Shown: positions 5,838-40,983 of the stretch, one piece after another
Numbering within the stretch: position 1 is the stretch's first letter
How the letters are laid out: every line of letters starts with the position of its first letter
Origin: Nitrosopumilaceae archaeon
GTDB lineage: Archaea > Thermoproteota > Nitrososphaeria > Nitrososphaerales > Nitrosopumilaceae
DNA: 64,000 bases
Direction: 5' to 3'
NCBI GenBank assembly: GCA_965200155.1
Contig: CBDATR010000034.1
Coordinates: 96,001-160,000, forward strand
Translations under genes and position numbers: made by a program
Notes under the pieces: generated by a model
Told to the model about the DNA's origin: nothing
Databases searched by the model: none
The model's input: only the letters and a program-made list of their open reading frames with translations

Positions 5838-7083
5838 GAGTTTGTTGCATAACTGACTTTGACAGAATACAGGTTCCCCATGTCGTAATCTACGTTACTG
5901 CCGCGTCCGCCCACTCGTTGCACTCGTATGTTATCCCATTTCCGCGCCATTAATCCGTGCCCGAATAATCGTTTGAACGGGAACCGGCTCTGATTATCTC
6001 GATTATCCATCGCCTGTTGTACCCTTTTGCCGCCTTCCAGTACTGCTTGTTTTCGGCCTTTTCCTCATCAGAAAGGCGGAAAATGGGCGATTCCGGGCTT
6101 CCTCCAAGACTGCAAGTCCCCATGAGTCGCCTTTCCTTTGGTGGAATTTAGCTGAAGTGGAATGGTTGTCCGGATTCGATTATCACTGCACAATTTCATG
6201 TTATCCCTGGACGCGTATGCGCCATCTGCAAGCAACTCGAGGTTGCATGCGCGCTTCTCATCATTATTCAGTAAGAGGGACACACCGTTAGTCAGCGCCT
6301 TTCCGGGTTGTGGCTTATCTGTTGGTCCTGCCAGGGATGGCAACTGTTGCAATGGGTCCGGAACTTTCCAATTCCAGGGTGATCAAGTATAGGTGTGTTA
6401 TTACAGCGGGCCATAATGTTGCAATGGGTCCGGAACTTTCCAATTCCAGGGTGTGCTCCCTGTCCAGTTGTGGCTCTTCTGCATACGAGTCCAGTACTGC
6501 ATTGTTTAACATGCGCGTATCCCCAACCCACTCGCCGGTAACCGTAAATGCATATGCTCTCCCAGTCCGCGAGCATTGATGAATCCGCGCCTCTTTTTCC
6601 ATTTGGTTCTAATCCACTCGCCACGATTCAAGGCCGGTCGAGTTAACAATCATGGTTCTAGTTAGCTTTTTGTCTGTGCCGACAATCATACCATTCCCCT
6701 TCTATGTCAAGATCTTTTCCGCGTCTGTAGTGGAGTAGTGCGGGGTTTGGTGTCCTTCCAGTAGTCCTGCAAGGAATCCGGATACCTGCCTGTATCTCAT
6801 ACCTAATGCCGTTCTCAGTGTCATGTAACATGTCCACGACATACCGGTAGGGAGCACCCTCCTTTATGGTTGGCCTTTTCAATCCCATACATGATCAAAG
6901 CCAAATAGCCTTCCGCTGGACGTACTTGCATTGTCGGTGAATACCATCAAGTTTGTTTAAAATATCTCAGATATTAATGCTTGGATCCAAGTTAGTAATC
7001 ACTATGACAGAATAAACGAAAATACTCAAACCGTTTCTCACATACATTTTTGATCTAACTTGTTTGGAGTTATACAACAAAGT
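5838..7083 (-). mobile_element. IS5 family (IS903 group) element with a pseudogenised transposase
   Basis: Imperfect TIRs gagtttgttgcataact/agttatacaacaaagt, 9-bp TSD acacaatag, motifs GEWIRTKW, LLADGAY, YNRRWII; multiple frameshifts. Confidence 0.8.
6345..6453. repeat. Isolated repeat-spacer-repeat unit 1 (37+35+37 bp), CRISPR-like geometry
   Basis: tgttgcaatgggtccggaactttccaattccagggtg at 6345-6381 and 6417-6453. Confidence 0.9.
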
Positions 7084-7122
7084 ACACAATAGTTAATATT
7101 TACATGCACTAGAGCGAATAGC

Positions 7123-7311
7123 ATGGACGTATTGATGGGCTTGGTAATTGTAACCATAATACTGGCGGGAGGCTGGGTTGGATACCATTCATGGCAGCAT
7201 TCCATGGAGGAAGGTTATGACTCCGGTGAGGCGCACGCAATAGGGCCGGAACAGCAGCTTGTACTATATGACGGGTCACATACTGGTATTGTAATTGCCT
7301 CTAACCGATAG
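7123..7311 (+). CDS. Small membrane-anchored hypothetical protein
   Basis: 62 aa with N-terminal hydrophobic helix; AT-rich upstream region. Confidence 0.45.
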   Translation: MDVLMGLVIVTIILAGGWVGYHSWQHSMEEGYDSGEAHAIGPEQQLVLYDGSHTGIVIASNR

Positions 7312-7501
7312 GGAGATAATACTGGTGCACATATCAAACGCGCTAACCGTATATGCTATAGGCCGCGCGGAGAATCGCATACCGGTCCATACCACACCGC
7401 ACCAGTTTGTCTATGATTCCATTCCGGAGAAATTCCGGCCCAATCTTGGTGCGGACTTGATAGACGAGATATTTGCAGCTATCCAAACGGTTCATAAATA
7501 G
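7295..7501 (+). CDS. Small hypothetical protein
   Basis: 68-aa ORF tightly packed upstream of purP. Confidence 0.5.
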   Translation: MPLTDREIILVHISNALTVYAIGRAENRIPVHTTPHQFVYDSIPEKFRPNLGADLIDEIFAAIQTVHK

Positions 7502-8540
7502 CGCCCAAATGCAATATTTTGGTATGGTTGCCATCTCTACGCTGGGTTCGCATTGCGCCCTGCAGGTGCTCAAGGGTGCCAAGGACGAGGGCCTAGATAC
7601 CATACTGGTCTGCGAGAAGCGCCGCCTCTCCCTGTATGGCCGTTTCCCGTTCATTGACAAGATAATTCCCGTTGACTCCTTTGCGGAGATAATGACCGAC
7701 TCGTACATGACTGCCTTGCAGGACTCCGTACTGATACCCCATGGCACGCTGGTGGCCCAGATGGAGCCGGATACTATCGAGTCCATTTCTGTACCGGTAT
7801 TTGGTAACAAGTACATACTCCGGTGGGAGTCGGATCGCGCACTGAAAGAGAGAATGATGATCCAGGCGCGCCTGCCCGTACCAAACGCCGTGGCATCACC
7901 GGATGACATAGCATCACAGGTAATAGTAAAGCGACAGGGCGCTGCTGGTGGCAAGGGGTATTTCATGGCATCCTCCCCGCAGCAGTTCCGGGACCGGCGC
8001 GACTCGTTGGTGGCCAGCGGAGTAATATCTGATGACGAGCAGTTATACATACAGGAGTATATAGCTGGCGTACTGGCATACTTGCAGTTCTTTTATTCCC
8101 CTCTCAGGGGCGAGGTGGAATTTTACGGATGCGACCAGCGTCACGAGTCCGATATTGAGGGTCTTGCCAGGATACCATCATCCAGCCAGAACCGGGACTG
8201 GGTACCCTCATTCAATGTCATAGGGAATAGTCCACTCTTCCTAAGGGAGTCCCTTCTTGATGAGGCCTACAAGATGGCTGATCGTTTCGTAAAAGCTGCC
8301 AAAGATCTTGCCCCGCCGGGTATGAACGGCCCCTTCTGCATAGAGGGCGTCTATGACGGGGATGGCAGGTTTTCATCATTCGAGTTTTCCGCCCGTATAG
8401 TGGCAGGTACCAGCATCCACATGGATGGCTCCCCGTACTATACGATGCTCTTTGGCCAGCCACTGAGTATGGGAAGGCGCATAGCCCGGGAGATAAAAAA
8501 CGCCAATGACCGTGGCCAGCTAGATATGGTGACCACCTGA
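7473..8540 (+). CDS. purP: FAICAR synthetase (formate-dependent, ATP-grasp); true start probably slightly downstream
   Basis: TLGSHCALQVLKGAKDEG, LRWESDR, GAAGGKGYF, GPFCIE, FEFSARIVAGT. Confidence 0.9.
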   Translation: MQLSKRFINSAQMQYFGMVAISTLGSHCALQVLKGAKDEGLDTILVCEKRRLSLYGRFPFIDKIIPVDSFAEIMTDSYMTALQDSVLIPHGTLVAQMEPDTIESISVPVFGNKYILRWESDRALKERMMIQARLPVPNAVASPDDIASQVIVKRQGAAGGKGYFMASSPQQFRDRRDSLVASGVISDDEQLYIQEYIAGVLAYLQFFYSPLRGEVEFYGCDQRHESDIEGLARIPSSSQNRDWVPSFNVIGNSPLFLRESLLDEAYKMADRFVKAAKDLAPPGMNGPFCIEGVYDGDGRFSSFEFSARIVAGTSIHMDGSPYYTMLFGQPLSMGRRIAREIKNANDRGQLDMVTT

Positions 8541-9335
8541 GGCAGTCTGCTTATCTATACCGCGCTGCGACTTTACTACGTATAGGTCACGAAGTTTCGT
8601 ACTAATGAAATCTATCACAAGTACCAGAACCAGCACCACAAGCATAAAGAATGCTGCCTTGCCATACTCAAAGAACCTGATATGCGTAATTATGTAGAAT
8701 CCAATCCCCCCTGCCCCCACGATTCCCAGTATACTGGACTGCCTGACGTTATAGTCGAACATGTACAACAGGTGGCCTAAAAGGTGGGACGCGGACTCGG
8801 GTATTACCACGTGCCTTATCATCTGCAGTTTCGACAGTCCGATGGAACCTGCTGCATCCATTGGTTCCACATCTATGGACTCTATTGACTCATACTGCAT
8901 CTTTGCCACAAAGCCTACCGTATACATGATTATTGCAAGTATCCCAGCAAAGGGGCTGGGGCCCACCATTATGACGAATAGCAGCGCCCACAGTATGGCG
9001 GGAAACATTCGGAGGGCGGCCAGCAACATGCGCATGGGGGCGTACACCCACTTGCCCATAACGTTGCGGGATGCCAAGAGACCCATGGGCAGTGCTATGC
9101 CATATCCCACCACGGTTCCTACAAATGCCATCTGTACGGTCTCCAGCATGGACCACAGTGCGCGCTCCAGCATTCTTTGGTCTACTTCCTGTAGCTCTTC
9201 TACTATCTCGTCCATGACCAATGCCAAATTGGGCAGGCCTTCCACAAACTCCTGGGGACTGGCCTCCATGTTCCATGATATGGCAATTACTGCTGCGACT
9301 ATGACTGCTATGGTGATGTTAGTCTTGGGGGTCAT
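8520..9335 (-). CDS. phnE: Phosphonate/phosphite ABC transporter permease
   Basis: ETVQMAFVGT, YMFDYNVRQSSILGIVGAGGIG; several TM helices. Confidence 0.9.
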   Translation of the reverse strand: MTPKTNITIAVIVAAVIAISWNMEASPQEFVEGLPNLALVMDEIVEELQEVDQRMLERALWSMLETVQMAFVGTVVGYGIALPMGLLASRNVMGKWVYAPMRMLLAALRMFPAILWALLFVIMVGPSPFAGILAIIMYTVGFVAKMQYESIESIDVEPMDAAGSIGLSKLQMIRHVVIPESASHLLGHLLYMFDYNVRQSSILGIVGAGGIGFYIITHIRFFEYGKAAFFMLVVLVLVLVIDFISTKLRDLYVVKSQRGIDKQTASGGHHI

Positions 9336-10101
9336 TGTACATTTCCATTATCTCTTGAGTGGTACAGTTGCCTGTATGAAATGATGTTATTCTCCTGTCA
9401 CACAATCCAAGCTCCATAACCTTCTTGCCATGCTGTATGAGCGCAACATGGTCCGCAAACTCCAGAGCCAGATCCACGTTATGGTGTATCATGACGGCTG
9501 TAAGCTCGCTCCCCTTCTGGATCTCCGCTACTAGACTCATCACTTCCCGGGCGGTCTTGTCGTCCAGTTCAGAAAGCATCTCGTCGGCGAGCAGAATAGT
9601 CGGCCTCTGCATGAATGCCCTGGCAATAGCGACCCTTCTCTTCTCGCCGCCACTGAGCATGTACACCTTGCGATACTCCTTGCCTGACAATCCAACCTGC
9701 TCCAGTATCTCCAGTGCGCGTTCAGTCTCCTCTGCCGGATAGCGCTTGATAAGCGAGTCTAACTTTTTCATGCGGGGCAGCGCCCCTATCATTACGTTAT
9801 CAAAGACGGTGGAATTGCGCACCAAGCCCAGGTGTTGTGGTATGTATCCTATGTGGGACATCACCGATCTAAACCTGCGACTGCCCTGGTCCGGAGTGTG
9901 ACCGTCCACCGCTATACTGCCCTTGTACGGCATCATGAGTCCGTTCATAAGCTTGAGGAGGGTGGATTTGCCGGATCCTGAAGTACCCACTATGGCATAG
10001 TTGGAATTTTTCTTTATATCCATATTTATCTCCTGCAGTATTATGCTTTTCTTGTTGTAAGATGCCCAGACATCATTCATGCGAATTATGCTATCCGGCA
10101 T
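9319..10101 (-). CDS. phnC: Phosphonate/phosphite ABC transporter ATPase
   Basis: Walker A GTSGSGKS, signature LSGGEKRRVAIARA, LLADE. Confidence 0.88.
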   Translation of the reverse strand: MPDSIIRMNDVWASYNKKSIILQEINMDIKKNSNYAIVGTSGSGKSTLLKLMNGLMMPYKGSIAVDGHTPDQGSRRFRSVMSHIGYIPQHLGLVRNSTVFDNVMIGALPRMKKLDSLIKRYPAEETERALEILEQVGLSGKEYRKVYMLSGGEKRRVAIARAFMQRPTILLADEMLSELDDKTAREVMSLVAEIQKGSELTAVMIHHNVDLALEFADHVALIQHGKKVMELGLCDRRITSFHTGNCTTQEIMEMYNDPQD

Positions 10102-10320
10102 ATCTTGGGACTAGAGTGGCTAAATATATAACAAATGTTTCATGGAGAATTAAATTTTCTGAGATATGCCTGTCATAATGTTGCGTAATTAATTTGCGCA
10201 ATGTTCGCGCAATGTATTACAACTATTCATATAGTAATTGGAAAGACGTGAACTCTATTTGTATTCCACAATTGTAGAATTATATTTTATAATTATGTTA
10301 ACGAGGCACAAAAAAAAACA

Positions 10321-11382
10321 CTATCTAAAGTCCTTTTTGTCCAGGATAAGTTGATCAAGACCGATCAAGTTGTCAATGTATTCACCAAAGTTGCCAATGT
10401 GCAGTGATGTAGTTGTGGGCAATAGTGCCTGTGCACCATAGAGGTCACGAAGTATCTGGTTGTAATCATCATTGTTGAGACCTATCATGGCATCTACAAG
10501 GGCCTGGCGCGTACCACTACTCATCTCGTCACTTACAACAAATACGTGCGATGGAACAGGGCCCAGAACTGCCGCTTTCCGCACCATTCCCTGCTCTTCT
10601 GGTTCCAGATACAGTTGGGGTGCGATGTCTGAACCAAAGGCCACATCCACATTCCCTGCTATCAAAAGTGCCAATGCCTGCGAATAGCCACCAGCAAAGG
10701 TATGCTGCTCAAAAGCATCATTTACTGCCTCGTTCAATGCTATAACGTCATCACCATTTATGGTTACATGACCCTCGCTTACCAGTGTACCAAAGGGTCT
10801 AACAAATCCCGATGATCCAGTCTGGCTGGTGAAAGCCACTTTCTTGCCCAGCGTATCCTCGATGGAATTGATATCCGTGTTGTCGGCTCTTACCCAGACT
10901 GTTGCATCATAACTGATACTGCCATCCCTCTTGACCTCTGCCATGACCACATCGGCTCCTGTTCTGGTATGTGCAATCCATCCGGGTCCTGTATCCATGA
11001 ATGCCGCATCAACGTGCCCGAATCGTAATCCCTCTATAATGGTTTCATAGTTGCTTGGTATGATTACGTCCACCTCTACACCCAGATCCGCCTCCAGGTA
11101 TTCCTGAAGCGCGGCAGCTCCTGCCGCTAGATCATCGGCCTTCTCTACGGGTATGAACCCGATGGTTATTGCGTCCGCATCTACTAGCGGATACTGGATT
11201 ATGTTGGCATTTACAAGATACTCTATGGCTCCGGTGAATTCCTCGTCCGTAGCACTGCCACTTGCCCACTCTCCGGCGATAACCCTTATCCAGTCCGGTA
11301 TTGCGGCTTCAGCGGATTGCATGGCTAGCGGTGCACCCATGAGCGTAATTGCTGCAATTATTGCTAATGTTACTTTAATCAT
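10321..11382 (-). CDS. phnD: Phosphonate/phosphite ABC transporter substrate-binding protein
   Basis: Signal peptide; ITIGFIP, FTSQTGSSGFVRP; adjacent to phnCE. Confidence 0.88.
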   Translation of the reverse strand: MIKVTLAIIAAITLMGAPLAMQSAEAAIPDWIRVIAGEWASGSATDEEFTGAIEYLVNANIIQYPLVDADAITIGFIPVEKADDLAAGAAALQEYLEADLGVEVDVIIPSNYETIIEGLRFGHVDAAFMDTGPGWIAHTRTGADVVMAEVKRDGSISYDATVWVRADNTDINSIEDTLGKKVAFTSQTGSSGFVRPFGTLVSEGHVTINGDDVIALNEAVNDAFEQHTFAGGYSQALALLIAGNVDVAFGSDIAPQLYLEPEEQGMVRKAAVLGPVPSHVFVVSDEMSSGTRQALVDAMIGLNNDDYNQILRDLYGAQALLPTTTSLHIGNFGEYIDNLIGLDQLILDKKDFR

Positions 11383-11470
11383 TAAACACCGCCTGAATAT
11401 AATTTGTATATTAACATAACCACAATTTTAAATTGATAAAATGCAATTAAGTAATAAAAGCAAAAAATAT

Positions 11471-11562
11471 GTATGAGTTCACGTCTTCCGGAATTTTATG
11501 CACAAATCACATTAACTGTCGCGATCAGTTATGCGTAAATTTAGACATAGGTGAACTCACAC
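11471..11562 (+). mobile_element. MITE family A (92-bp type)
   Basis: TIRs; 8-bp TSD aaaaatat. Confidence 0.92.
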
Positions 11563-11703
11563 AAAAATATTACTTTGTGATGAGCAATTAATTTTTGGAC
11601 ACGTTATACCAAAAATACTGGATATTGTACAAATAGGCTTGTAAAATAACCAAGTTAAATGATCATGCACAAAATCTACACATATGGGTTTGCCTACAAA
11701 TGA

Positions 11704-11928
11704 GTAACAGCTTAGGTTATACGTGGATAGCCGTTTAAAATACATGTATGAGTTCACCTGTGTCTAAATTTACGCATAACTGATGGAACAGGTTGTTCTA
11801 GTTAATGTGATTTGTGCATAAGATTCCGGAAGACGTGAACTCATACAAATGCATCACTAGCATACAATTATTGTCCTTTCTATCATAATACCTCATGTAT
11901 GGATGTCTACGCGACCTATAGCGGCCAC
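11704..11928. mobile_element. Degenerate MITE family B carrying a nested family A copy
   Basis: gtaacagcttaggt ... gcgacctatagcggccac; interior resembles 15466-15599. Confidence 0.45.
11746..11846 (-). mobile_element. MITE family A (101-bp type)
   Basis: TIRs; TSD aaatacat/aaatgcat (1 mismatch). Confidence 0.92.
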
Positions 11929-12184
11929 CATAAGTCTTTGGGCGACTAATTTGATCAAAATATCACAATTATCACAGGCTTATTTGCGCGCCCCCAGGGG
12001 GTGGTTAATTTGGCATGTTAATATGGTATTATGTACAGCTAAATATGGTACTTTGAAGCAAGATAAAAGTTAAAAACTTGGATCTTATATACTAGTATAA
12101 TGGATCGCGCCCAACAATTACACCAAATTCAGGCAAGCTAGGGATCCGGGCAAATTGCGCGCCGACTGGGTATGCTGATATTAT

Positions 12185-12285
12185 GTATGAGTTCACCTGT
12201 GTCTAAATTTAAGCACAACTGATGGAACAGGTTGTTCTAGTTAATGTGATTTGTGCACAAGATTCCGGAAGACGTGAACTCATAC
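12185..12285 (-). mobile_element. MITE family A (101-bp type)
   Basis: TIRs; 8-bp TSD gatattat. Confidence 0.92.
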
Positions 12286-12329
12286 GATATTATTGCTGAA
12301 TATGCAGCTTAATTTTGCGGAAGCCGCCA

Positions 12330-12610
12330 TAAAGTATCAGTGTGATACGCACTGTCATAACGTGGTATAACCGGTTACGGCAGGGTGGTAATGATACAGC
12401 GGGAATCAGAGACTGACAAGCCCAGATCAGCTCGCCCCACGAAAATAAAGCGAGAACAGCTGGAGAGGGCCCGTTTATGGGCGCAAAGCCACGTATTCAT
12501 CACCAGGATTACCTCGAAGAGATATCCGGAATAAGACTGAGCGCAAATCAGGCTCAAGCGTTACGCCAAAAAGTGTGGTTGCTCCAACAAAAAGTCATCG
12601 CTCATCAAGG
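12330..12610 (+). pseudogene. IS630-like transposase N-terminal fragment
   Basis: PRSARPTKIKREQL HTH-linker motif; partial second copy at 40910-40983. Confidence 0.4.
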
Positions 12611-12711
12611 GTATGAGTTCACGTCTTCCGGAATCTTGTGCACAAATCACATTAACTAGAACAACCTGTTCCATCAGTTGTGCGTAAATTTAGACACAGG
12701 TGAACTCATAC
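12611..12711 (+). mobile_element. MITE family A (101-bp type), no TSD
   Basis: TIRs; flanks catcaagg/aaatgccc differ. Confidence 0.92.
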
Positions 12712-12839
12712 AAATGCCCTGTGATGTGCAGATTTTAAGCAAGGCAAGCATTGTGTGCATTCGCGCCTTCCCCGGTCTTGTACACAAATCATTTTGACAT
12801 GGGCGAAATCATACGGACAAATAATCGCCGTACATGCGG

Positions 12840-15413: not shown

Positions 15414-15465
15414 CAGGAATAGGTCTTTTCATGAGGCTATTTTAAAGCATTGCAACTATCATGGG

Positions 15466-15599
15466 GTAACCGCTCAGGTCACCCCTGGACAACCGCCTAA
15501 AATACACCGCGGGTATGCCCATTCTTTTTCATAATGTCTCAAATATGCCTATGATTTTACCGTCTGGATGTTTATGGTTAACGCGACCTAAACGGTTAC
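15466..15599. mobile_element. MITE family B (about 134 bp)
   Basis: gtaaccgctcaggtcac ... gcgacctaaacggttac; similar along its length to 47890-48013. Confidence 0.7.
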
Positions 15600-15609
15600 C
15601 ATTCATGAG

Positions 15610-15880
15610 GTAACCGCCCGGCTCACTCTTCCATATATGGCATAGACTGAATCCTGCTATTCTACTAGTATGACAAGGCAGCGCCGGACACGTCAGGACT
15701 GGCGGGAGGTAATTCCATACCGGATTTTGTACCCTGAAAACACGCCACAATTCGGGGCGACCTAAACGGTTGTATGAGTTCACGTCTTCCGGAATCTTAT
15801 GCACAAAAGAACCGGTTCTTTAACTGTCGCGATCAGTTATGCGTAAATTTAGACACAGGTGAAATCATACAAACGGTTAC
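15610..15880. mobile_element. MITE family B; right TIR interrupted by a family A MITE
   Basis: gtaaccgcccgg ... gcgacctaaacggtt[MITE]aaacggttac. Confidence 0.6.
15772..15870 (+). mobile_element. MITE family A (variant with internal palindrome aaagaaccggttcttt)
   Basis: TIRs; 8-bp TSD aaacggtt. Confidence 0.9.
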
Positions 15881-15921
15881 ACTGACAACGGTTTTTAATG
15901 TAGTATGAAAGTAGTGGAATC

Positions 15922-16572: not shown

Positions 16573-18692
16573 CACTATTTCCATCTGAGATGTCATACCT
16601 GATAGAGTCACTGGAGCGAAAGCCCACCAAGACGGAGCTGGCAATGGTCTCTGCGCAGTGGTCGGAGCATTGCTCATACAAGTCGTCCCGCATTTATATT
16701 AAACAACTGTACCGGAAAAGTGCATCTTCCCAGGGCGGCCTGGACTCTGGGGTTCTTGACATAGGGGACGGATATGTGGTGACTGCCCACATAGAGAGTC
16801 ACAACCACCCTTCCGCGGTTGAACCTTATGGCGGCGCGGCCACGGGGGTTGGGGGCGTACTGCGGGACATAATATCCGCGGGCACAAGACCCATAGCCGT
16901 ACTGGACGGGTTGCGCTTTGGTGACATATCTGTCGACAGGCACTCTGCATGGAGACTCAAGGAGGCCGTGCGAGGCATATCGGACTATGGCAACTGCATG
17001 GGCATACCCACCGTATCCGGGGAGACCGGCTTTGACTCATGCTACACCGACTATGCGCTTGTGGATGTGGGCGCCATAGGTCTAGGCAAAAAAGATACCA
17101 TTATCCGGAACCGGGCATCCCCCGGCGACAATATATTATTGATTGGGGGGTTGACCGGCCATGATGGCGTCGGCGGCGCCCAGTTCGCGTCCGACTCTTT
17201 GGATTCACATGACAGGGACGCGGTCCAGATACCGGATCCCTTTATAGAAAAGATTACGATGGAGGCAATATTCGAGGCACTCCCCCACATCCACGCCATA
17301 AAGGATTTGGGCGGCGGGGGATTGGCCTGTGCCATATCCGAAACTGCACACTCACATAATGTAGGCATGATGATAAACGCGGATTCCGTACATACACGGG
17401 AGTCCATGGAGACTCATGACATTATGGTATCCGAGTCGCAGGAGAGGATGCTAGTCATAACTGATGATGCAGGTATGGGGGCCGTCAATAAAGCATGTTC
17501 CAAGTTCCGTGTTATGTGCTCGCTCATTGGCACCGTTAACGATTCCGGAGTGATTACCGTTCATGACCGTAATGGTATCCGGGCCAACATGCCTGCATCC
17601 CTGTTGGCTATAGCACCAGTCCTGAAATGGCCTGCATCCGACATTCCCATAACACATGAAAGCCACAATGACATGGGACCACTGAATGATTACACCGATG
17701 TAATATATGAGATGCTTGCCGGCATGCACTGCTCCAGCAGGCATTCCATATATCGGCAATATGACTACGAGGTAGGTGTCCGTACCATGATAGGACCGGG
17801 CCAGGATGCATCATTACTACGAATGGATAACGACATGTATCTGGCGGTATCGATGAGTGGAAACCCCGGCCATTGTTACTCCAATCCATACAAGGGTGCC
17901 ATGGGGTGCTTTGAGGAGGGATACCGGAATGTCACCTGTGTGGGTGCCACGCCCGTGGCCATGCTGGATCATTTACAGTTTGGGAGTCCGGAGGATCCCA
18001 AAATATTCCGCACATTCACAGACAGTGTATCCGGACTGGCCGCATACGGAAAAGGAACAGACATACCCTGCATAGGCGGCAAGGTCAGCTTGTACAACGA
18101 GACTGCTCACGGCCCCATCAAGCCGACACCGGTCATTATGGTACTGGGTATGTCAAAATCAATACCGGCCATATGGGAACCCAAAGAGGGCGACTCATTA
18201 GTAATGATAGGCAGCACCAAACCGGAGCTGGGCGGCTCCATATATTACAGCATGAATAATTACGCTGGTGGTACCTGTCCTGCAGTTGATATAACTGAAT
18301 CAATAAAGAATGGCGATACGGCAAGGCACATGATACACGACTCTGTGGCATCACGTATTCATGACTGCTCCGGCGGGGGGTTGGCAGTAGCGCTTGCCCG
18401 TTTATGCATGGGTGGTGATATAGGCTGTAGCGTGAATCTGGGCGACATGTTACAGGAGTCGTGCCTTACAAATCACATGCTATTCTCGGAGAGTCATTGC
18501 AGGTACCTGGCCGTAATACCGGAGAAACATTCCACACCAGATGTACTGGGGCGATACGGCTTACAAGTCTTGGGCCATTTCGGCGGTGACTCTATAGTAT
18601 TTCATTCAAATGGAATAATAGCAAATGTCATGGTTGATAAGGTGAAGAATATGTGGCATGAATCATTGGAGTGCATGATGCACAATGGTTAG
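16569..18692 (+). CDS. purL: FGAM synthase subunit
   Basis: WSEHCSYKSS, ESHNHPSAVEPYGGAATGVGG, SESQERM, GGKVSLYNET. Confidence 0.96.
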   Translation: MTLFPSEMSYLIESLERKPTKTELAMVSAQWSEHCSYKSSRIYIKQLYRKSASSQGGLDSGVLDIGDGYVVTAHIESHNHPSAVEPYGGAATGVGGVLRDIISAGTRPIAVLDGLRFGDISVDRHSAWRLKEAVRGISDYGNCMGIPTVSGETGFDSCYTDYALVDVGAIGLGKKDTIIRNRASPGDNILLIGGLTGHDGVGGAQFASDSLDSHDRDAVQIPDPFIEKITMEAIFEALPHIHAIKDLGGGGLACAISETAHSHNVGMMINADSVHTRESMETHDIMVSESQERMLVITDDAGMGAVNKACSKFRVMCSLIGTVNDSGVITVHDRNGIRANMPASLLAIAPVLKWPASDIPITHESHNDMGPLNDYTDVIYEMLAGMHCSSRHSIYRQYDYEVGVRTMIGPGQDASLLRMDNDMYLAVSMSGNPGHCYSNPYKGAMGCFEEGYRNVTCVGATPVAMLDHLQFGSPEDPKIFRTFTDSVSGLAAYGKGTDIPCIGGKVSLYNETAHGPIKPTPVIMVLGMSKSIPAIWEPKEGDSLVMIGSTKPELGGSIYYSMNNYAGGTCPAVDITESIKNGDTARHMIHDSVASRIHDCSGGGLAVALARLCMGGDIGCSVNLGDMLQESCLTNHMLFSESHCRYLAVIPEKHSTPDVLGRYGLQVLGHFGGDSIVFHSNGIIANVMVDKVKNMWHESLECMMHNG

Positions 18693-20085
18693 GGAGAATT
18701 GTGGAGTCGTTGGGGTATTCAGTGATGATAATGCCAATGTCATACCATTAGTTATAGATGCCCTCCGCGCCATGCAGCATCGGGGTCAGGAGGCATGGGG
18801 GCTAGCCATACCCAATCGCGAGCCGCTAAGACGCATGGGACTGGTCTCTGATTCTGCCTCGGACTTTCAGGATATGGCCCGCGATTACCAGTCATCCTGC
18901 GCCATCGGCCATGTAAGATATTCCACAATAGGCAGGAGCAACCTGGAGAACGCGCAACCACTGAGAGTACAAGACCTGTGTGTCGCGCATAATGGTACCA
19001 TTACCGATGTGCACCAGATGAAGAATCTGGTGGGCGGGTGCACCTTTAGTCCCCAGACCACTAGCGATACGCTCATGGGCGCCAAACGCCTTGTGGATTT
19101 AATGGGTGGTGGTGGCAGTATGAGTAAGGCATTACAGATACTAAAGGGCGAGATGATGGGCTCCTACTGTTTCACGTTCATAGCCGATGACGGCTCCGTT
19201 TATGCGGCACGTGATTCTAGGGGCTTTCGGCCCATGGTTCTTGGGTATAGGAATAATGATAGAGTGCATATTGTGGCCTCAGAATCCGCGGCCTTGGGTT
19301 CCATAAGGGCCGATCTGGTGAGAGATGTGCGTCCCGGCGAGCTATTACAAATAAGTAAAAACGGCCTCAAGAGCGAGATGTTCTCAGAGGGTGAGCGCCA
19401 CGCGCACTGCTCCTTTGAGTTTACGTATTTTGCGCATCCGGCTAGCCGCATGGAGGGGGCCAACATATACCTGACGCGCAAAAGAATAGGCAGGAGATTG
19501 GCGCGCAAGTTTCCCATATATGACGCGGATTTGGTAATCCCGGTCCCGGACTCTGCCAGGCCCGCGGCCCTAGGTTATGCTCAGGAGCTCTCCATACCAT
19601 TTGATGAGGGACTGCTAAAAGATAGATACAGCAAGAAGGGCCCCTTGCGCAGTTTCATTGAGCCGCAACAGAGGGACCGCATGGAGATAAACCGCTGGAT
19701 AATACCAATCCAGGAGATTGTAAATAACCGTCATGTAGTAGTCATAGATGATAGTCTGGTCCGGGGCACAAGCTCTCGCGCTATAATAAAGGCCCTGCGG
19801 GACGCGGGCGCCCGCAAGATAAGCATGTTAATCACGTATCCACCAGTCCGATTCCCGTGCTACGCGGGTATTGACTTTCCGTCCCGGGAGGAATTGGCAA
19901 CGTACTCTGATAAGGATTTGAGCGAGACCGAGACTATCGAGATGGTGCGAAAAGATATCGGCGCGGACTTTTTGGGACATAATGACTCAGAGAATCTTGC
20001 GCGCGCAGTAGGGATACCCCATGACTCCATGTGCTTTACCTGTTATACGGGCGATTACAGCACGCTGGGAATAAAGCCACAGTAG
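18685..20085 (+). CDS. purF: Amidophosphoribosyltransferase
   Basis: ENCGVVG, QHRGQE, GHVRYST, HNGT, PVPDS, DDSLVRGTS. Confidence 0.96.
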   Translation: MVRENCGVVGVFSDDNANVIPLVIDALRAMQHRGQEAWGLAIPNREPLRRMGLVSDSASDFQDMARDYQSSCAIGHVRYSTIGRSNLENAQPLRVQDLCVAHNGTITDVHQMKNLVGGCTFSPQTTSDTLMGAKRLVDLMGGGGSMSKALQILKGEMMGSYCFTFIADDGSVYAARDSRGFRPMVLGYRNNDRVHIVASESAALGSIRADLVRDVRPGELLQISKNGLKSEMFSEGERHAHCSFEFTYFAHPASRMEGANIYLTRKRIGRRLARKFPIYDADLVIPVPDSARPAALGYAQELSIPFDEGLLKDRYSKKGPLRSFIEPQQRDRMEINRWIIPIQEIVNNRHVVVIDDSLVRGTSSRAIIKALRDAGARKISMLITYPPVRFPCYAGIDFPSREELATYSDKDLSETETIEMVRKDIGADFLGHNDSENLARAVGIPHDSMCFTCYTGDYSTLGIKPQ

Positions 20086-20253
20086 CCGGTTCACGACACC
20101 CTTGTGGCGTAGATCGTGTTTATCGGCGTCTTGCACGAATGATTATGATTCTATGGCAACTAAGTCTCTGAATATACATACAGTTTCCGTCTTGTGTGCA
20201 ACAGACTTGTGTGACCTGCTATACCCGCATTCTGCCGCGGAGAGGCACGCGGG

Positions 20254-20364
20254 ATTGAGGGAAGCATGAAAAATTATGCCCTGGTATGGGACCCACCACG
20301 GGAGTGACCACCGCAGCGGCCGTGCCTATTGAGGGAAGCATGAAAAATTATGCCCTGGTATGGG
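20254..20364. repeat. Isolated repeat-spacer-repeat unit 2 (37+37+37 bp), CRISPR-like geometry
   Basis: attgagggaagcatgaaaaattatgccctggtatggg at 20254-20290 and 20328-20364. Confidence 0.9.
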
Positions 20365-20449
20365 TGACTCCCGGTGACTTGTGCCGCCTTTTTGGGAGGC
20401 TCCTGTTTAACGCGACACATTTATCTTAATAACGCGTAATTGTCAGTCT

Positions 20450-20989
20450 GTGAGGCGCAAGGAGAGAGAACAAATCAGGGTTGGCGACCTTGTCATAAAC
20501 ATAAGAAGGACCAGCAGGCGAAAAACTATGGCGATTCATGTTGAAAGGGAGGGTGTGGAAGTGCGGACACCATTATCCACACCTAACACAACGATTAGAA
20601 AAATTGTTATCAACGACAGAGAGTGGATTAACAAAAGGCTCAAGGTGTTTGAAGATATGGTGATTCCCACCGTAAAGGCCAAGCCGGTGTCATTATTGGT
20701 TACAAGAGTCCATGAATTGGCCAAAGTGATGGGCGTGAATCCCGCCAAGGTTACCATAAGAGTGATGAAGACGCGCTGGGGTAGTGCAGGTAAAAATGGT
20801 AATATCACGTTAAACGAGAAACTGACACTGGCCCCTGATCCGGTAATAGACTCTGTCATAATTCACGAGCTGTGCCACTTGGTACACCATAATCACTCCC
20901 CGGCATTTTGGGAACTGGTAAAAGGATATGACAAAAACCTTGCAACTAGCAAAGAATGGCTTCGAAAGAACGGACTGTGGCTTGCATAA
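20450..20989 (+). CDS. YgjP/DUF45 (M48-like) zinc metallohydrolase
   Basis: MKTRWGS, VIIHELCHLVHHNHSPAFW. Confidence 0.85.
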   Translation: MRRKEREQIRVGDLVINIRRTSRRKTMAIHVEREGVEVRTPLSTPNTTIRKIVINDREWINKRLKVFEDMVIPTVKAKPVSLLVTRVHELAKVMGVNPAKVTIRVMKTRWGSAGKNGNITLNEKLTLAPDPVIDSVIIHELCHLVHHNHSPAFWELVKGYDKNLATSKEWLRKNGLWLA

Positions 20990-21060
20990 GTTTCATCCGT
21001 GTATGTTGGTGTGCACACAAGCTGGCACACCCTGATTTTTAGATATGCTTTCATGGCCGT

Positions 21061-21915
21061 GTAACCGTTTAGGTCACACGACACCTTAACCATATGTTCT
21101 GATTAATCCAATACATGTCATATGGAAGACCCAGAGGTTGAGATTCTGGGGGACAAGCTAGCCATGGCTGAATACAAAAGAAACATCAAGATCAATGAAG
21201 AAAAAGATGTGACTATCCGCAGATTATATGAGAAGGATCTCGAATCAGTCAATGCCAATATGCGTAAAGAATTGGAATTGCGGGAGTGTTTAGCTCGACT
21301 AATGGAAGAATACAACCGTAAGCATAACTGTTGAAAGGCTGCCGGATGATATATCCGGAAATCAAAATACTGCGGGACAATCTGACCAAGGCCATAGGCG
21401 TGAATGGTAAACTGATAAGAATAATTCGTGGGAAAGAAATTATCATCGAGATACAGTCAGACGAAATTACAAGGTTAGAGACAACGTTGAAGATACTCCT
21501 TGCAGCAAGGGATAAAGTTAATAAGGAAGAATCTCCGGTATTATGAAAACTCGCATACCCCTTCATCCTAGAACTCCATTCCACCGAAGTCAAAAAGGGC
21601 TGCACAAAGAAGGGCTAATGCCGCAAAAAATACCGGCAAATGTGGCCGGAAGAATGGACACTGGAAAATCCCACAGCAGAAAGCCGGACACAATAGTGCT
21701 CAAGACACCTGACAAGTACCCAAAATCTGGAAAAGACCGGCAACACAACAACAGACATACCCGCCATTCCGAAAGCGGAGGTTACCGCACACATGACGAA
21801 TAAGTGTCGGTGCCGGGAATGCAATACCATTATCGATACGGTGCATGATCCCGACGTAATCCAGGGCACGCAATTTGGACGCAACTTACTGACCATCATA
21901 ACCGACTCATCAATA
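21061..21915 (+). mobile_element. Decayed IS66-family element, left part; probable partner of MITE family B
   Basis: Starts gtaaccgtttaggtcac; coiled-coil ORF pieces, YENSHTPSS, CRCREC zinc-finger piece, GTQFGRNL. Confidence 0.6.
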
Positions 21916-22256
21916 GTACGAAAAGTAAGTCCACTTAGGATCCAGCGTACAGTAGCTCAGATTGCACAAGCCAGATGGTAAAGAGAATAACAGAGGAATC
22001 AAGACAAAAGAGGCGTTGCCACAACCAACATCTCAAGACCTGAAACAAGACACGTACGAAGATTGTGAACCAGAGAACGGGAACGACTTAAGATGGGCAT
22101 GCCTATGATACCAATCACCGCCACCCAGATACGAATGGTAACTGAAGCACACAGCAAGGATCCCGCCGGAGTAGTACGTATTGCAAAGAGGCTTAGACAT
22201 GATACATATCGCGCAGTATGTCGCATAATGAAAAAGAACGGTACGGCAGCCTCATC
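21915..22256 (+). pseudogene. IS481-like transposase N-terminal fragment (second copy about 24674-25019)
   Basis: HSKDPAGVVRIAKRL...YRIMKKNG resembles HKKEPVGVLRTAVRL...YCIMKNN at 26900-27050. Confidence 0.55.
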
Positions 22257-22357
22257 GTATGAGTTCACGTCTTCCGGAATCTTATGCACAAATCACATTA
22301 ACTAGAACAACCTGTTCCATCAGTTATGCGTAAATTTAGACACAGGTGAACTCACAC
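22257..22357 (+). mobile_element. MITE family A (101-bp type), no TSD
   Basis: TIRs; flanks differ. Confidence 0.92.
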
Positions 22358-22545
22358 TGTTTTTCTTCTAATTTCTCTTCCAATTCATTTACATAATTTC
22401 TAATAATTTGGAAATCTTGTATGTGATTTCGTATTTCTTCTATGGTGCGTGTGACATATGTGCTTCCAATACTCTCAGACGTTCCTTGTAATGTGCAAGA
22501 TCTTTCTTGGTAGACGCAAGGGTATCCTGAAGAAGCTTATTTTTC
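22358..22545 (-). mobile_element. Internal fragment of the IS66 element
   Basis: Reverse complement closely matches about 37093-37280. Confidence 0.8.
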
Positions 22546-22646
22546 GTATGAGTTCACGTCTTCCGGAATCTTATACACAAATCACATTAACTAGAACAAC
22601 CTGTTCCATCAGTTATGCGTAAATTTAGACACAGGTGAACTCATAC
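22546..22646 (+). mobile_element. MITE family A (101-bp type)
   Basis: TIRs; left flank tatttttc equals the right flank of the copy at 25020-25111. Confidence 0.92.
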
Positions 22647-22871
22647 AACAATCCAGCGTAGCAGGCTCTGCGATACGCAGTGGTATTCCGCAAGATTAGT
22701 GGCCAGATAAAGGGTGGTGAAAGGGCCATGCGCCGCATGTCCACATGTGTTCAGAGATGGCGGGCTCAGGGCCTTTCTGTAATGAGCGAGGTTGCTACCA
22801 GAATGCAATTATAATTAAAAAACTGGGATGCATTCTATCTTATTATGTGATCAAAACACGTGAACTCATAC
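22647..22871 (+). mobile_element. Right-end fragment of the IS66 element
   Basis: Matches 38408-38642 including TIR tgatcaaaacacgtgaactcatac. Confidence 0.85.
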
Positions 22872-22881
22872 CAGAATAGAG

Positions 22882-22973
22882 GTATGAGTTCACCTGTGTC
22901 TAAATTTACGCATAACTGATCGCGACAGTTAATGTGATTTGTGCACAAGATTCCGGAAGACGTGAACTCATAC
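22882..22973 (-). mobile_element. MITE family A (92-bp type), no TSD
   Basis: TIRs; flanks differ. Confidence 0.92.
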
Positions 22974-24364
22974 CTTAACTTTTCTGTTTCACACGAGTCT
23001 GTGTGGGAAAACCCATGATATTAGGTCAATTGCTCGTATCTAACAACTTGGTTTAGACGTGCAGGGTGGGAGAAGTGATTCTGCGCATACGGTCTAATAT
23101 CGCAAATCAAGTCAACACCCGACTTTAAGGAAATTGTTCCAGGCCGAGCCGGAGGGGAGATAAAGACTGACGGGACACATGTACGCGTACAACGTCCTGA
23201 AAAAAATCAGGAGGCAATGTACTCTGGTAAACAAAAAACCCACACGTATAACGTACAGATAACATCAAACAAGAAAAGACTGATAATTCACGTCAGTGGA
23301 GTATATGAGGGAAAAAGACACGATTATGGTATATTCAAGAATGATATTCCCCTTGGAGGCAAATGGGGCAAGTCCCTAAAAGAATCAACCACGCTGCCAT
23401 CTGAGAAGATAACAGTAATAGCAGATGCAGGATACCAGGGTATGAAAGACTTCCTACCCGGCGCAAAGGTCATAATTCCATACAGGGGTAGGGAATCACT
23501 CACTAAAACTGAAAGGAAATACAACCAATATGTATCAAAAAGGCGCATATTAATCGAGAATGTAATTCGAATGCTAAAGGTATATCGTAGATTAAGTCAG
23601 GTATATGATGGTAGTCGTGAGGAATTCCGGGAAGATCTACTCGTAGTATCCGGGTTGCATAATTTACACATTATGCACAAGCATACCAGGTACAAGAAAT
23701 TTTTGAAAAATATCTGTCCATAATTTCCGTGTTATTATAATTCGAATATTACTCATCAGAAAATCCACTAAATTAATGGGTTTTGTGGTAACCATTTAGC
23801 TCACTCATGATATACGTCATCAAGATCCGGTCACCCCACTACACGACATTTGTAATCACGGCATACGTTAGTGCTGACAGGTGCCATTAACATTGTTCAT
23901 GCTTGCCTGATTGTGTGCCATAAAATACACCCCAGTTTGAAGCAACATGGGCTATTCCTGTCAATCATGCGCATAAGGTCTATTGCTTTTGCAACGGTAT
24001 CGGCCGTTGGGAGTATCTTGATCAGTCCCTGCTTTGTAAACTGGATGTAACGACATATGTTTGACTGGTTTATCTTGAGTATTGCAGCAAGAAGCTCTTG
24101 CTTTGTATTGCAGCGCAGGCGTATCAGTGTAACTAATGGTACATGCCTGACCGGAAATTTGTTCACGTGCCCGCGATCATTTGTAAGTTCTAAGAATCGC
24201 CGTGCATCATCGCCTTCCAGGGACTCTACGTATTCTGTGAATCTGATTAGTATCCATTTGAACTCTTCCGGGGTGCATCCGGTCAGGGAATGAAGCTGAT
24301 CCTTGCGTTCTATGATATCATCAAGATTTGAAACGAGGGCATTCTTTGTTTGAGCTTCAAGTTT
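22974..24364. mobile_element. Rearranged IS5-family (ISL2/DDE_Tnp_4-type) element, inside-out
   Basis: Left TIR ends at 23095; C-terminal half on + (TDGTH, YSGKQKTH, ADAGYQG, IENVI) with right TIR ending at 23981; N-terminal half on - (23982-24364). Confidence 0.8.
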
Positions 24365-24465
24365 GTATGAGTTCACGTCTTCCGGAATCTTATGCACAAA
24401 TCACATTAACTAGAACAACCTGTTCCATCAGTTATGCGTAAATTTAGACACAGGTGAACTCATAC
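24365..24465 (+). mobile_element. MITE family A (101-bp type), no TSD
   Basis: TIRs; flanks differ. Confidence 0.92.
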
Positions 24466-25019
24466 CCTGACAAGTACCCAAAATCTGGAAAAGACCGGCA
24501 ACACAACAACAGACATACCCGCCATTCCGAAAGCGGAGGTTACCGCACATATGACGAATAAGTGTCGGTGCCGGGAATGCAATACCATTATCGATACGGT
24601 GCATGATCCCGACGTAATCCAGGGCACACAATTTGGACGCAACTTACTGACCATCATAACCGACTCATCAATAGTACGAAAAGTAAGTCCACTTAGGATC
24701 CAGCGTACAGTAGCTCAGATTGCACAAGCCAGATGGTAAAGAGAATAACAGAGGAATCAAGACAAAAGAGGCGTTGCCACAACCAACATCTCAAGACCTG
24801 AAACAAGACACGTACGAAGATTGTGAACCAGAGAACGGGAACGACTTGAGTAAAGATGGGCATGCCTATGATACCAATCACCGCCACCCAGATACGAATG
24901 GTAACTGAAGCACACAGCAAGGATCCCGCCGGAGTAGTACGTATTGCAAAGAGGCTTAGACATGATACATATCGCGCAGTATATCGCATAATGAAAAAGA
25001 ACGGTACGGCAGCCTCATC
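24466..25019 (+). repeat. About 550-bp near-identical duplicate of 21708-22256
   Basis: Same sequence from cctgacaagtaccc to gcagcctcatc; both copies end at a MITE. Confidence 0.9.
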
Positions 25020-25111
25020 GTATGAGTTCACGTCTTCCGGAATCTTATGCACAAATCACATTAACTGTCGCGATCAGTTATGCGTAAATTTAGACACAGG
25101 TGAACTCATAC
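25020..25111 (+). mobile_element. MITE family A (92-bp type)
   Basis: TIRs; right flank tatttttc. Confidence 0.92.
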
Positions 25112-25243
25112 TATTTTTCAGCTCCAATTCCTTATAGGACCGGCGTCTTCTCATTAGATTCTTATTGTAAATTTGGTATTTAAGCAAAATATTGTCATAC
25201 CAATCTATATCTTAGTGAATGATCAAAACACGTGAACTCATAC
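25112..25243 (-). mobile_element. Left-end fragment of the IS66 element
   Basis: Reverse complement matches 36969-37100 including TIR. Confidence 0.85.
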
Positions 25244-25402
25244 GAATCATGAACTAGATTCACAAGGTGTGTGTAATTGGTAAATTCATGAACCCGTAAT
25301 AATTCGCAGGTTCCCGATTACGCGCCCCATTACCATTGAGGCACATTTCGCCGCATACCAGTTATGACTAGGTATGTCACTATCCGGTAATAGTCTTCCA
25401 GT

Positions 25403-26191
25403 TCATTTGTAGCGGCCCTGCCATGCATACTTTTGCCCTATTCTGCCCTCGGATAATCGACTCTTTATCATCTCTACGTATCGTGATTGCAGCTCGCACG
25501 TCATGTATGTTAATCCCATACTCTTTGCCTGAATGACCTCCGAGCCGCTCCCCCCGAATAATATGAAAATGGTATCGCCGGGAATGGTGCACGAGCGCAT
25601 TAACAGCCCGGATAAACTTTCAGGTATCTGGCATGGGTGTATGGTTTTAGTCCTGGATACGTTCTTGATTAAATTCATGTTAATCCAGGAATAGGGCATT
25701 CTGCCCATGTGGCCGTCTTTTATACGCTGTTGTATTCGGCTATCTGTTGGATTCTGGTACGGCTGCGCCACCTGTTCCTTGTAGAATTTATTGTTCCTTG
25801 ATTTTGTAACATGTAATATGGAGCGGTGAGCCGTGGTGAATCTTCGCGGAGAATGCCCTACATTGGTATTATACACCCATACATAGTCATGTACTGAGTG
25901 GGCATTATCATCCAAGTACTTGACGCGCAAGTGGGCATTCTGCTTTGGGTAGTTAATGAAGAATAAGTTTCCGTCAGGTTTCAGAATACGTAAGCACTCC
26001 TTGGCTAAACTCACATACCATTCTATGTAATCCTGAAATGATGTTGTGAATGATTCCCCGTCATACTTTATACCTACATTATAGTCAGGGTCTCCGTATA
26101 TCATGTCTAGAGAATTATCTGGCATGTCATTCATTACCCCAAATACATTCTCGTTAAGTACGGCATTCCTGTATTTTTCCGGTAACACCAT
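25403..26191 (-). CDS. Orphan N4/N6 DNA methyltransferase (beta class)
   Basis: Catalytic-like motif GDPDYN precedes HPCQIPESL and SAM-binding-like LFGGSGS; no adjacent restriction gene. Confidence 0.85.
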   Translation of the reverse strand: MVLPEKYRNAVLNENVFGVMNDMPDNSLDMIYGDPDYNVGIKYDGESFTTSFQDYIEWYVSLAKECLRILKPDGNLFFINYPKQNAHLRVKYLDDNAHSVHDYVWVYNTNVGHSPRRFTTAHRSILHVTKSRNNKFYKEQVAQPYQNPTDSRIQQRIKDGHMGRMPYSWINMNLIKNVSRTKTIHPCQIPESLSGLLMRSCTIPGDTIFILFGGSGSEVIQAKSMGLTYMTCELQSRYVEMIKSRLSEGRIGQKYAWQGRYK

Positions 26192-26308
26192 TTACGGATG
26201 TGTATAATGATTTGTTATTTATGTACGCGTCATTCAAATCCTGACTGTTTCATACCGAAATTATGTCGCTTAGTCATCCGTATCCCTCTCCATCCATTTT
26301 GGGTCGTT

Positions 26309-27293
26309 CTATCTTGATGCGCGCCTACTATGAAATGCCCTGAGCGAGGTCTCCAGATTATACATGTAAAGAGCAAAGTGAAGCCGTATCTCATTGTAGT
26401 ACTCTACATAATCTGACAAGCTTTCATAATGGAATATCTCATCCTCGATGCTCCGGTGAAATCGCTCCAGCTTACCATTGGTCTGGGGCTGGGCTGGGAC
26501 GGCTATTGATGAGCTCAATACCCCGATTGAGCAGCTCTTTTTCGAATATTGCAGGCCTCCATTTCTTCTTTGGAGCCTTGCTACACACTCCAACGAGGCA
26601 TGATCCATTATCCGACCTGTATATTTTGGTGGCATCTTTCGAAATGAACATCCCGCTACACACTCCAACGAGGCATGATCCATTATCCGACAGTATAGCT
26701 GCCGGGGTTCAGAACTGCTCTATCGCCTTGCGTAATACCGTAATGGCGTTTTCTGACGTGGCCTCCCGGAACAGTTGAGCGGCAACTATGCGGCGCGAGG
26801 AGTCATCTATGCGATTCAGGCCCTCAAACCGCGGTTCTTTCATGACATACCGGTCAACATGCCACAGGGCATTGGAATACTTTCTTTCATATCGCACCCA
26901 CTTGCGTTTTTTAGATTTTGCGGGGGATGCGGTCACCAGATTGTTATTTTTCATGATACAATATATGCGCCGGTACTGATCTTTCCTCTGAGCCTGACAG
27001 CTGTACGCAATACACCAACAGGCTCCTTTTTGTGAGTATCCAGAACCTGTCGTATTTCTTGAAGTGTGATCTCCATACTGGGACGGCTGGCGCGTCCGGG
27101 AACCGGATACTTGCCGGTCCTGTGGAATTCGGTCTGAATGTGCCTTTGCAAGACACCCACTTCCCGGATATGTTCGAGGTGCTCTTTCCCTTACTGATGA
27201 CGTATCGGAGAACTTTTTCATCTCAGGTACTTGACCATGTTTTTCTTTGATTTGTAGAATCTCTGTTAGCCGTTTTTGGACTTTGCTAAACAC
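26309..27293 (-). pseudogene. IS481-like (rve integrase core) transposase pseudogene
   Basis: RYERKYSNALWHVD, DDSSR, ILSDNGS, PQTNGKLERFH, YYNEIRLH; frameshifted. Confidence 0.8.
26580..26691. repeat. Isolated repeat-spacer-repeat unit 3 (37+38+37 bp), CRISPR-like geometry
   Basis: gctacacactccaacgaggcatgatccattatccgac at 26580-26616 and 26655-26691. Confidence 0.9.
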
Positions 27294-40714: not shown

Positions 40715-40806
40715 GTATTAGTTCACCTGTGTCTAAATTTACGCATAACTGATCGCGACAGTTAATGTGATTTGTGCATAAGATTCCGGAAGACGTGAAC
40801 TCATAC
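40715..40806 (-). mobile_element. MITE family A (92-bp type), no TSD
   Basis: TIRs (one mismatch); flanks differ. Confidence 0.9.
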
Positions 40807-40983
40807 GAATAATTACGATAATATCTAACTAAAAAAACTTGGATATCTCCTACCAAGCCAAAAACGCTCTTTCTATATTATTATATGATCAAAACACCTG
40901 AACTCATACGATCAGGTCGCCCCACGAAAATAAAGCGAGAACAGCTGGAGAGGGCCCGTTTATGGGCGCAAAGCTACGTATTC

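Follow-up and report, generated by a model that had tools for sequence, protein, structure and literature searches.

The stretch of DNA analysed here, hereafter the window, spans 64,000 nucleotides (nt; C34:96001-160000) of a 2.38-Mb archaeal genome bin that comprises 51 contigs and is 87.6% complete. Within it lie three short units, each with two identical copies of a target sequence on either side of an insert, which we consider here as probable products of the genome's own CRISPR spacer-integration machinery. In unit 1, target copies at 6345..6381 and 6417..6453 flank a 35-nt insert at 6382..6416, giving a period of 72; each copy is apparently 37 nt long, the real duplication being probably 36-37 nt, and the unit sits in a repeat element that is present in many copies and matches no Pfam family. 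Unit 2 has 37-nt copies at 20254..20290 and 20328..20364 around a 37-nt insert at 20291..20327 (period 74) and occupies unique intergenic DNA between a purF-like open reading frame (ORF; 18685-20085, +) and a YgjP-like ORF (20450-20989, +). Unit 3, with 37-nt copies at 26580..26616 and 26655..26691 and a 38-nt insert at 26617..26654 (period 75), sits in an rve-family transposase remnant, where the ORFs at 26309-26683 (-) and 26709-27293 (-) match rve_3 and rve. An initial annotation of the window had described three exact 37-nt duplications around inserts of 35, 37 and 38 nt, their repeats mutually unrelated and the third lying in transposase coding sequence, and all of this is borne out. A chance origin of exact 36-37-nt repeats at such spacing is excluded in 2.4 Mb, and a search of the window for repeats of length 18 or more, spaced by no more than 150 nt, found no further units like these three.

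Other copies of the host elements reveal what each event added. The unit 1 insert is missing from 18 paralogous empty-site copies (for example C34:44465-44621, at 97-98% identity), and the alignments, shown for three of the 18, have a clean gap of exactly 72 nt. Likewise, two paralogous copies of the unit 3 region (C10:487561.. and C31:22776.., about 91% identity) lack its insert, with a gap of exactly 75 nt. The empty alleles that the initial annotation had suggested looking for in other element copies therefore exist for units 1 and 3, each with a single target copy and no insert. Because the empty copies are shorter by exactly 72 and 75 nt, each event consists of one spacer and one duplicated target, and this combination of one insert with one extra target copy is the signature of staggered integration at points 36-37 nt apart, followed by gap repair. 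For unit 2 we found no comparable orthologous empty site, as relatives match the neighbouring gene only, at about 74% identity. Here the sequence data of others are informative: Logan 31-mer contigs from four runs belonging to two studies end at 20283 and restart at 20335. These breaks fall exactly where a 31-mer graph must branch given a 37-nt duplication, so unit 2 is not an artefact of one assembly, a concern that had been raised at the outset and that the contigs of both studies answer. Assembly or binning artefacts, such as chimeric joins in a metagenome-assembled genome, might be suspected in a bin of this contiguity and completeness that also holds contamination-like low-GC contigs. We regard them as an extremely improbable source of the units, since the branching at both expected unit 2 positions recurs across runs and studies, and since an artefact would not give 66 units the period of the resident CRISPR array, and would not supply them with inserts taken from distant contigs in the bin.

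The three units belong to a class that extends across the genome. Isolated exact direct repeats peak at 36 nt (14) and 37 nt (15), with 0-2 at lengths of 31-35 and 38-40 nt, which is the genome-wide enrichment that the initial annotation had predicted. Near-exact direct repeats (31 or more of 34 bases matching), counted outside the main array, peak sharply at periods of 72 (32), 73 (19), 74 (12) and 75 (6), compared to 0-6 at periods 60-70 and 0-3 at 76-81. Of 82 candidate rows, those on low-GC contigs were set aside, as were two coding repeats arranged in tandem (C9 12517 and C10 3477xx-3478xx), and the 66 units that remain represent 62 different inserts at 49 different target sites. The three duplications first noted within about 20 kb are real, but they are no local peculiarity, the window units being three of the 62 events. 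Paralogous copies with a single target and no insert exist for 35 of the 66 units. Target copies are identical in 48 of the 62 events, differ by one mismatch in 11 and by two or three in 3, and among the 48 exact events the apparent duplication lengths are 35 (1), 36 (17), 37 (20), 38 (4), 39 (3) and 40 (3) nt. Where the apparent repeat is longer than 36 nt and the insert has a match elsewhere, that protospacer match usually continues into the repeat, so part of the excess repeat length is in fact spacer.

These dimensions are those of a CRISPR array carried by the same genome. Contig C9 encodes an array of 289 repeats of 36 nt, with spacers of 37 (101), 36 (85), 38 (63), 35 (16) and 39 (15) nt. 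Off-target periods run from 71 to 75 nt (with one of 78), and their mean of 72.89 nt is indistinguishable from the array's 72.99 nt (Mann-Whitney p=0.26). Of the fixed 37-bp ruler in the initial annotation, the ruler stands and the fixed 37 does not: the ruler is the length of the resident repeat, 36 nt with some 37. The initial annotation had asked whether the genome's own array has 37-nt repeats and 35-38-nt spacers; its spacers, at 35-39 nt, come near this, and its repeat is 36 nt. On one side the array is flanked by a Cas4-Cas1 fusion and Cas2, and on the other by Cas3g, a Cas3-extension protein, Csb2 and Csb1. Cas4g/Cas1g, Cas3g, Csb1/Cas7g and Csb2/Cas5-6 all exceed their NCBIfam cut-offs, as a type I-G system should. 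The fusion (Cas4g/Cas1g, NF049935, 710.7 bits against a cut-off of 560) is the single Cas1 in the genome and lies on C9, not on the window's contig. The initial annotation had asked where cas1, cas2 and cas4 might be; a Cas4-Cas1/Cas2 module adjoins the array, and with a resident Cas1 present there is no need for the unrecognised analogue that it had entertained.

We consider it highly likely that the window units are scars of off-target spacer integration made by this type I-G module, Cas4g/Cas1g with Cas2. The units combine a target of the resident repeat's length with inserts of spacer length that differ from one another, in a genome that encodes Cas1 and Cas2. They do not have the makings of a functional CRISPR array, as each window unit has two copies of a sequence that is unrelated both to the array repeat and to the other units. 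In its normal reaction, the integration complex would attack both borders of the leader-proximal 36-nt repeat and insert a 35-39-nt prespacer, after which gap repair would duplicate the repeat. Off target, the same reaction would take place on ordinary, loosely repeat-like DNA, at borders 36 (sometimes 37) nt apart, and would have left its target-insert-target product at least 62 times in this genome. The original suggestion, in which Cas1-Cas2 writes DNA of spacer size into sites outside CRISPR loci and duplicates a target as long as the repeat, is supported by every check that had been named as able to overturn it.

The origin of the inserts provides a second line of evidence. Matches elsewhere in the genome at E<1e-6 were found for 33 of the 62 inserts; three of these are copies in other copies of the same unit or element and one is a match to an array spacer. 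Chromosomal protospacers can be assigned to 29 of the 62; 22 of these are 100% identical along the whole alignment and 25 occupy single-copy loci, so that about half of the inserts were captured from the host chromosome. By comparison, no full-length match outside the array exists for any of the 288 array spacers, and their only outside hits are a 28-nt overlap with one off-target insert and a 17-nt hit (E=0.003). Inserts are unrelated to their own flanks, and the 29 matching loci lie mostly on other contigs. Templating from adjacent DNA, named in the initial annotation as a possible objection, can be set aside, as can tandem duplication by slippage. Target-site duplication by a transposon or insertion sequence (IS) is rejected as well, since the inserts are 35-39 nt long and all different, with many copied from unique chromosomal loci. 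A TTN motif adjoins 12 of 30 scored protospacers, whereas 12 controls, each displaced by 4-15 nt, average 5.8 (range 3-9); the motif was taken from PMC6547450, and the array spacers, having no protospacers in the genome, gave no protospacer-adjacent motif of their own. Protospacers are unevenly distributed, with 16 of the 29 on contig C10 (540 kb, a quarter of the main contigs; binomial p=7e-4). This excess may reflect a hot region linked to replication or to breaks, or else an effect of copy number.

Self-derived inserts are also what templated repair insertions would look like, and the genome is rich in transposases. A different enzyme making a 36-37-nt staggered cut, be it casposase-like or another transposase or integrase, or else repair with templated fragments, could then be imagined, all the more as Cas4g/Cas1g-Cas2 is a catalyst that we infer. 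We think there is very little chance that this is correct. The period and insert length equal those of the resident array, only one Cas1-family gene was found, and the 62 inserts all differ, with no common sequence or terminal repeats. Templated repair leaves no 36-nt target duplication, while the TTN enrichment and the repeat-likeness of the sites described below point to CRISPR machinery. Target duplications are a few nt for IS and about 14-15 nt for casposons, which weighs against such enzymes too.

Target choice by the putative integrase is neither strict nor random. When the 49 distinct sites are compared with the array repeat in the better orientation, a mean of 12.76 of 36 positions match, compared to 11.36 (sd 0.31) in the null, and one of 500 null sets reached the observed value. 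We prefer this test, which is de-duplicated by site, over a motif search with orientation sampling that gave 9.3 bits of total information (5.2-5.8 in 20 nulls), a value inflated by several events at the same sites in that run. Counted on each strand, G is the base with which the duplication starts at 15 of 26 junctions from unambiguous 36-nt events; array spacer ends have no strong base bias. Sites are also reused: a site in an IS66-family transposase gene has received six events with different inserts, a second hot spot has four in the same register within 1 nt, and five other sites have two each. Given hot spots in one register and a small but significant resemblance to the repeat, the weak target specificity of the initial annotation needs correcting: specificity is real and not very weak. 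Reuse extends to the units themselves, with two spacers and three repeats now present at four loci (C9 70400, C24 237593, C24 500916 and C10 210130). At C24:352098-352298, two units lie 92 nt apart and the second target starts with the last 16 nt of the first, which makes them staggered, overlapping integrations at one place.

The cas locus itself is a target. Five of the nine events on C9 fall within 8.5 kb upstream of the array (C9:62508-70590), where about 0.24 would be expected at the genome-wide density. At C9 70400-70590, the duplicated 37 nt spans the cas1 stop and the cas2 start, and three repeats with two spacers now separate the two genes by about 148 nt, with both ORFs intact; the relative G005 has no insert at this junction, where 1 nt separates the cas1 stop from the cas2 start. 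Fragments of two genes, one for a HaeIII-type restriction enzyme and one for a D12 methylase, hold some of the events in C9:62508-70590.

The distribution of units bears on whether they are instead genuine mini-CRISPR arrays of a second, unrecognised CRISPR system, functional or spread by mobile elements. Between 58 and 64% of the 66 units are in repeated DNA, compared to 24% of 600 random sites, and one unit recurs with the same insert in at least four further copies of an IS66-family element, so that this unit travelled with its element. As read from the sequence, the repeat at the IS66-family site moreover holds a short palindrome. Each of these features would suit mobile mini-arrays, yet such arrays would require 49 repeat families to account for 49 unrelated 'repeat' sequences, and many of these 'repeats' are ordinary coding sequence, such as the cas1/cas2 junction and the starts of the SHMT and PyrD genes. 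In addition, 23 units lie in unique DNA, most element copies are empty at the site, and the genome has no second Cas1. We therefore judge a second system to be a very unlikely source of the units and retain off-target integration by the resident module as their explanation.

Off-target scars would be expected to persist where they do little harm, namely in repeat elements, intergenic DNA, gene ends and in-frame positions of dispensable genes. Gene context was annotated for ten units in or beside longer ORFs. SHMT, PyrD and a Translin-family gene have units at their 5' ends. An amidohydrolase gene has one at its 3' end, as does a metallo-beta-lactamase-fold gene, in which the stop codon falls within the repeat. 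One unit interrupts an Mrr-like restriction gene, and four add 24 codons in frame. Of the 62 off-target events, 33 have a period divisible by three, compared to 101 of 287 in the array (p=0.01), and this excess is what selection against frameshifts would leave. Selection thus likely shapes where scars survive. Self inserts would be tolerated because a non-cognate 'repeat' probably cannot yield a working CRISPR RNA, leaving the scars silent in immunity, whereas self-spacers in a real array would bring autoimmunity and be purged.

Relatives of this genome provide a comparison for the accumulation of scars. Cas1 is present in 7 of 10 genomes of the genus, and the long fusion occurs in four besides this one. 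Two relatives, G005 and G006, were sampled for units over 400 kb each. In G006, which has its own I-G array with 37-nt repeats, we find three isolated units of period 72, while G005 yields none, and thus the reaction is not unique to the genome studied here although the accumulation is unusual. Candidate reasons are that adaptation is highly active, that purifying selection is weak in a symbiont rich in repeats, or that cas1 and cas2 are uncoupled. A defective integrase finds no support as a cause: the Cas4g/Cas1g is full length, aligns with four orthologs from the genus and has intact conserved motifs, and its 41 unique positions are mostly conservative, with no conserved motif seen among them, though this is a weak test given orthologs that are only 58-66% identical. 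In G006, no recognisable effector genes are among the listed ORFs between its two arrays. Elsewhere in G006 (C1:875-895 kb and 1123-1188 kb), many period-75 hits come from coding repeats of 75 nt (25 codons) in long genes, and repeats of this type would mislead a simple scan for CRISPR-like units.

The interference side of the resident system also deserves comment. We found no match to Cas8g (TIGR04113, TIGR04106; Csx17 or GSU0052 type) in this 87.6%-complete genome, a search for which control genomes gave no valid positive, and in G005 a weak Cas8g2 match of 100.8 bits, below the family cut-off of 125, lies between cas3g and csb1. The interference complex may be without its large subunit, even though the array has no self-spacers. 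Directly upstream of csb1, at C9 ~99.1-100.4 kb (L003 7200-8830), lies an IS with DDE_Tnp_4 and HTH_Tnp_4 matches. Within the array, one adjacent pair of spacers is identical and several other pairs partly overlap (spacers 160/161, 61/62, 139/179 and 205/245), a pattern that points to duplication inside the array or to one source being captured more than once.

Several observations weigh against our interpretation or limit it. The events are tied to Cas4g/Cas1g-Cas2 through geometry and co-occurrence, so that the attribution stays a probable one. TTN enrichment is modest, as 18 of the 30 protospacers have no TTN, and the side on which TTN lies shows no consistent relation to the best repeat-like target orientation (6 R+, 3 L+, 1 R- and 2 ties). 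There are more 37s than pure 36-nt duplication predicts: the exact events divide 18/20/10 by apparent length compared to an expected 27/13.5/7.5 (chi-square p=0.03), and either the ruler slips or a boundary-base preference exists. Some counts reflect transposition and not integration, since 4 of the 66 units carry the same event, spread by a host repeat element. The three window inserts match nothing else in the genome and have no exact match in viral contigs. Every 31-mer of an empty allele is also present in the filled allele, and 31-mer contigs are uninformative on the coexistence of the two. Finally, G005 has a similar system, including an array with 36-nt repeats, and its sampled 400 kb contain no isolated units where about 11 would be expected (P ~1e-5). 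A genome-specific factor probably lies behind the accumulation seen here.

The host and its genome provide context for these events. Because the genome encodes an archaeal AmoA and DNA near-identical to the window is present in sponge metagenome runs of two studies, we read the host as a putative sponge-associated ammonia-oxidising archaeon. The main contigs (n=22, 2.20 Mb) have a GC content of ~45-52% (about 47%). A set of small low-GC contigs (35-43% GC; C2-C4, C6, C8, C11, C14-C18, C21, C26-C29, C32, C33, C38-C42, C44, C45, C47-C49 and C51) bears satellite-like tandem repeats and is probably sponge or other contamination in the bin; C51, a member of this group, has repeat elements and one protospacer in common with the main contigs. 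Repeated DNA makes up about a quarter of the genome. One short element resembling a miniature inverted-repeat transposable element, with inverted ends (GTATGAGTTCAC...GTGAACTCATAC), occurs in the window at 22855-22974, 25095-25244 and 40790-40910 and at hundreds of places in the genome (over 600 BLAST matches), and summed contig depth reaches thousands in window bins that contain it, compared to ~65-70 in unique DNA. At window 22403-22479, a high-depth contig of run X5 has 33 other letters in place of 75 nt, probably a variant copy of a repeat element, and at 63702-63806 a 21-nt unit (TCAGACATCACCTGATAACAG) is present in 4-5 tandem copies.

If scars are probably silent in immunity, they may record naive acquisition before autoimmunity has filtered it. 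We regard it as possible, and advance it tentatively, that this genome is a natural and largely unselected logbook of a type I-G integrase. Half of the inserts are self DNA, disproportionately from the 540-kb contig C10, and the loosely repeat-like sites are piled up next to the cas operon, including the cas1/cas2 junction, both of which fit such a reading. Already-used units being used again fits it also, and new arrays may be starting in the wild. Were the reading true, 29 of 62 versus 0 of 288 self-spacers would be a direct measure of the autoimmune purging of the real array, and the clustering near the array would hint that the integrase works mainly close to its place of synthesis. The 62 datable scars offer a natural estimate of integrase fidelity in a wild genome, and the 49 real off-target sites are a source from which to read type I-G target rules. 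With half of their inserts self-derived, the scars amount to a record of spacer capture without selection by interference, and the four two-spacer loci are snapshots of possible array birth. CRISPR finders and annotators may miss two-repeat units of this kind, or label them small orphan arrays.

The off-target mechanism of Cas1-Cas2 has already been published, and what is new is its scale in nature and the self origin of the inserts; in the literature that we searched, which leaves most subscription journals outside it, no paper on natural scars at such a scale or on their self origin was found. Off-target spacer integration and the resulting 'neo-CRISPR' loci were described by Nivala, Shipman & Church 2018, cited here through portions of 10.1101/148544, PMC7054753 and PMC11788318. 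As there, a spacer is written by what we take to be Cas1-Cas2 at a non-CRISPR site, the repeat-length target is duplicated, and the units can seed arrays, for which the counterpart here is the four loci that have gained a second spacer. According to text that cites it (10.1101/148544), that work overproduced Cas1-Cas2 in E. coli, a type I-E case, and for two other species its evidence was no more than circumstantial. Here the setting is an archaeal symbiont in the wild, whose Cas4/Cas1 fusion is of type I-G and whose single genome has 62 fixed events, half of their inserts self-derived and one locus inside the cas operon. The available text on P. furiosus Cas1-Cas2 reports full-site integration in vitro at non-CRISPR sites with G/C one repeat length apart (PMC6698737). 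Those sites, with a few internal repeat-like positions, resemble ours, which favour G at their two borders, 36 nt from each other, and are weakly repeat-like; the substrates there were plasmids in vitro and the repeat 30 nt, while here chromosomal scars are fixed in nature and the repeat is 36 nt.

The closest architectural parallel is the Cas4-Cas1 module of the G. sulfurreducens I-U/I-G system, which shares the fused form (NF049935). The accessible portion of the report on that module gives TTN in 50% of unique naive spacers (PMC6547450), compared to 40% here. In E. coli, the same portion indicates, the module preferred plasmid over chromosome (PMC6547450), whereas 29 of our 62 off-target inserts are chromosomal. 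Self-targeting array spacers, to the extent that PMC6990116 as available describes them, likewise match the host genome. Unlike those spacers, the self-matching inserts described here lie outside the array and between non-cognate repeats, while the real array has 0 of 288.

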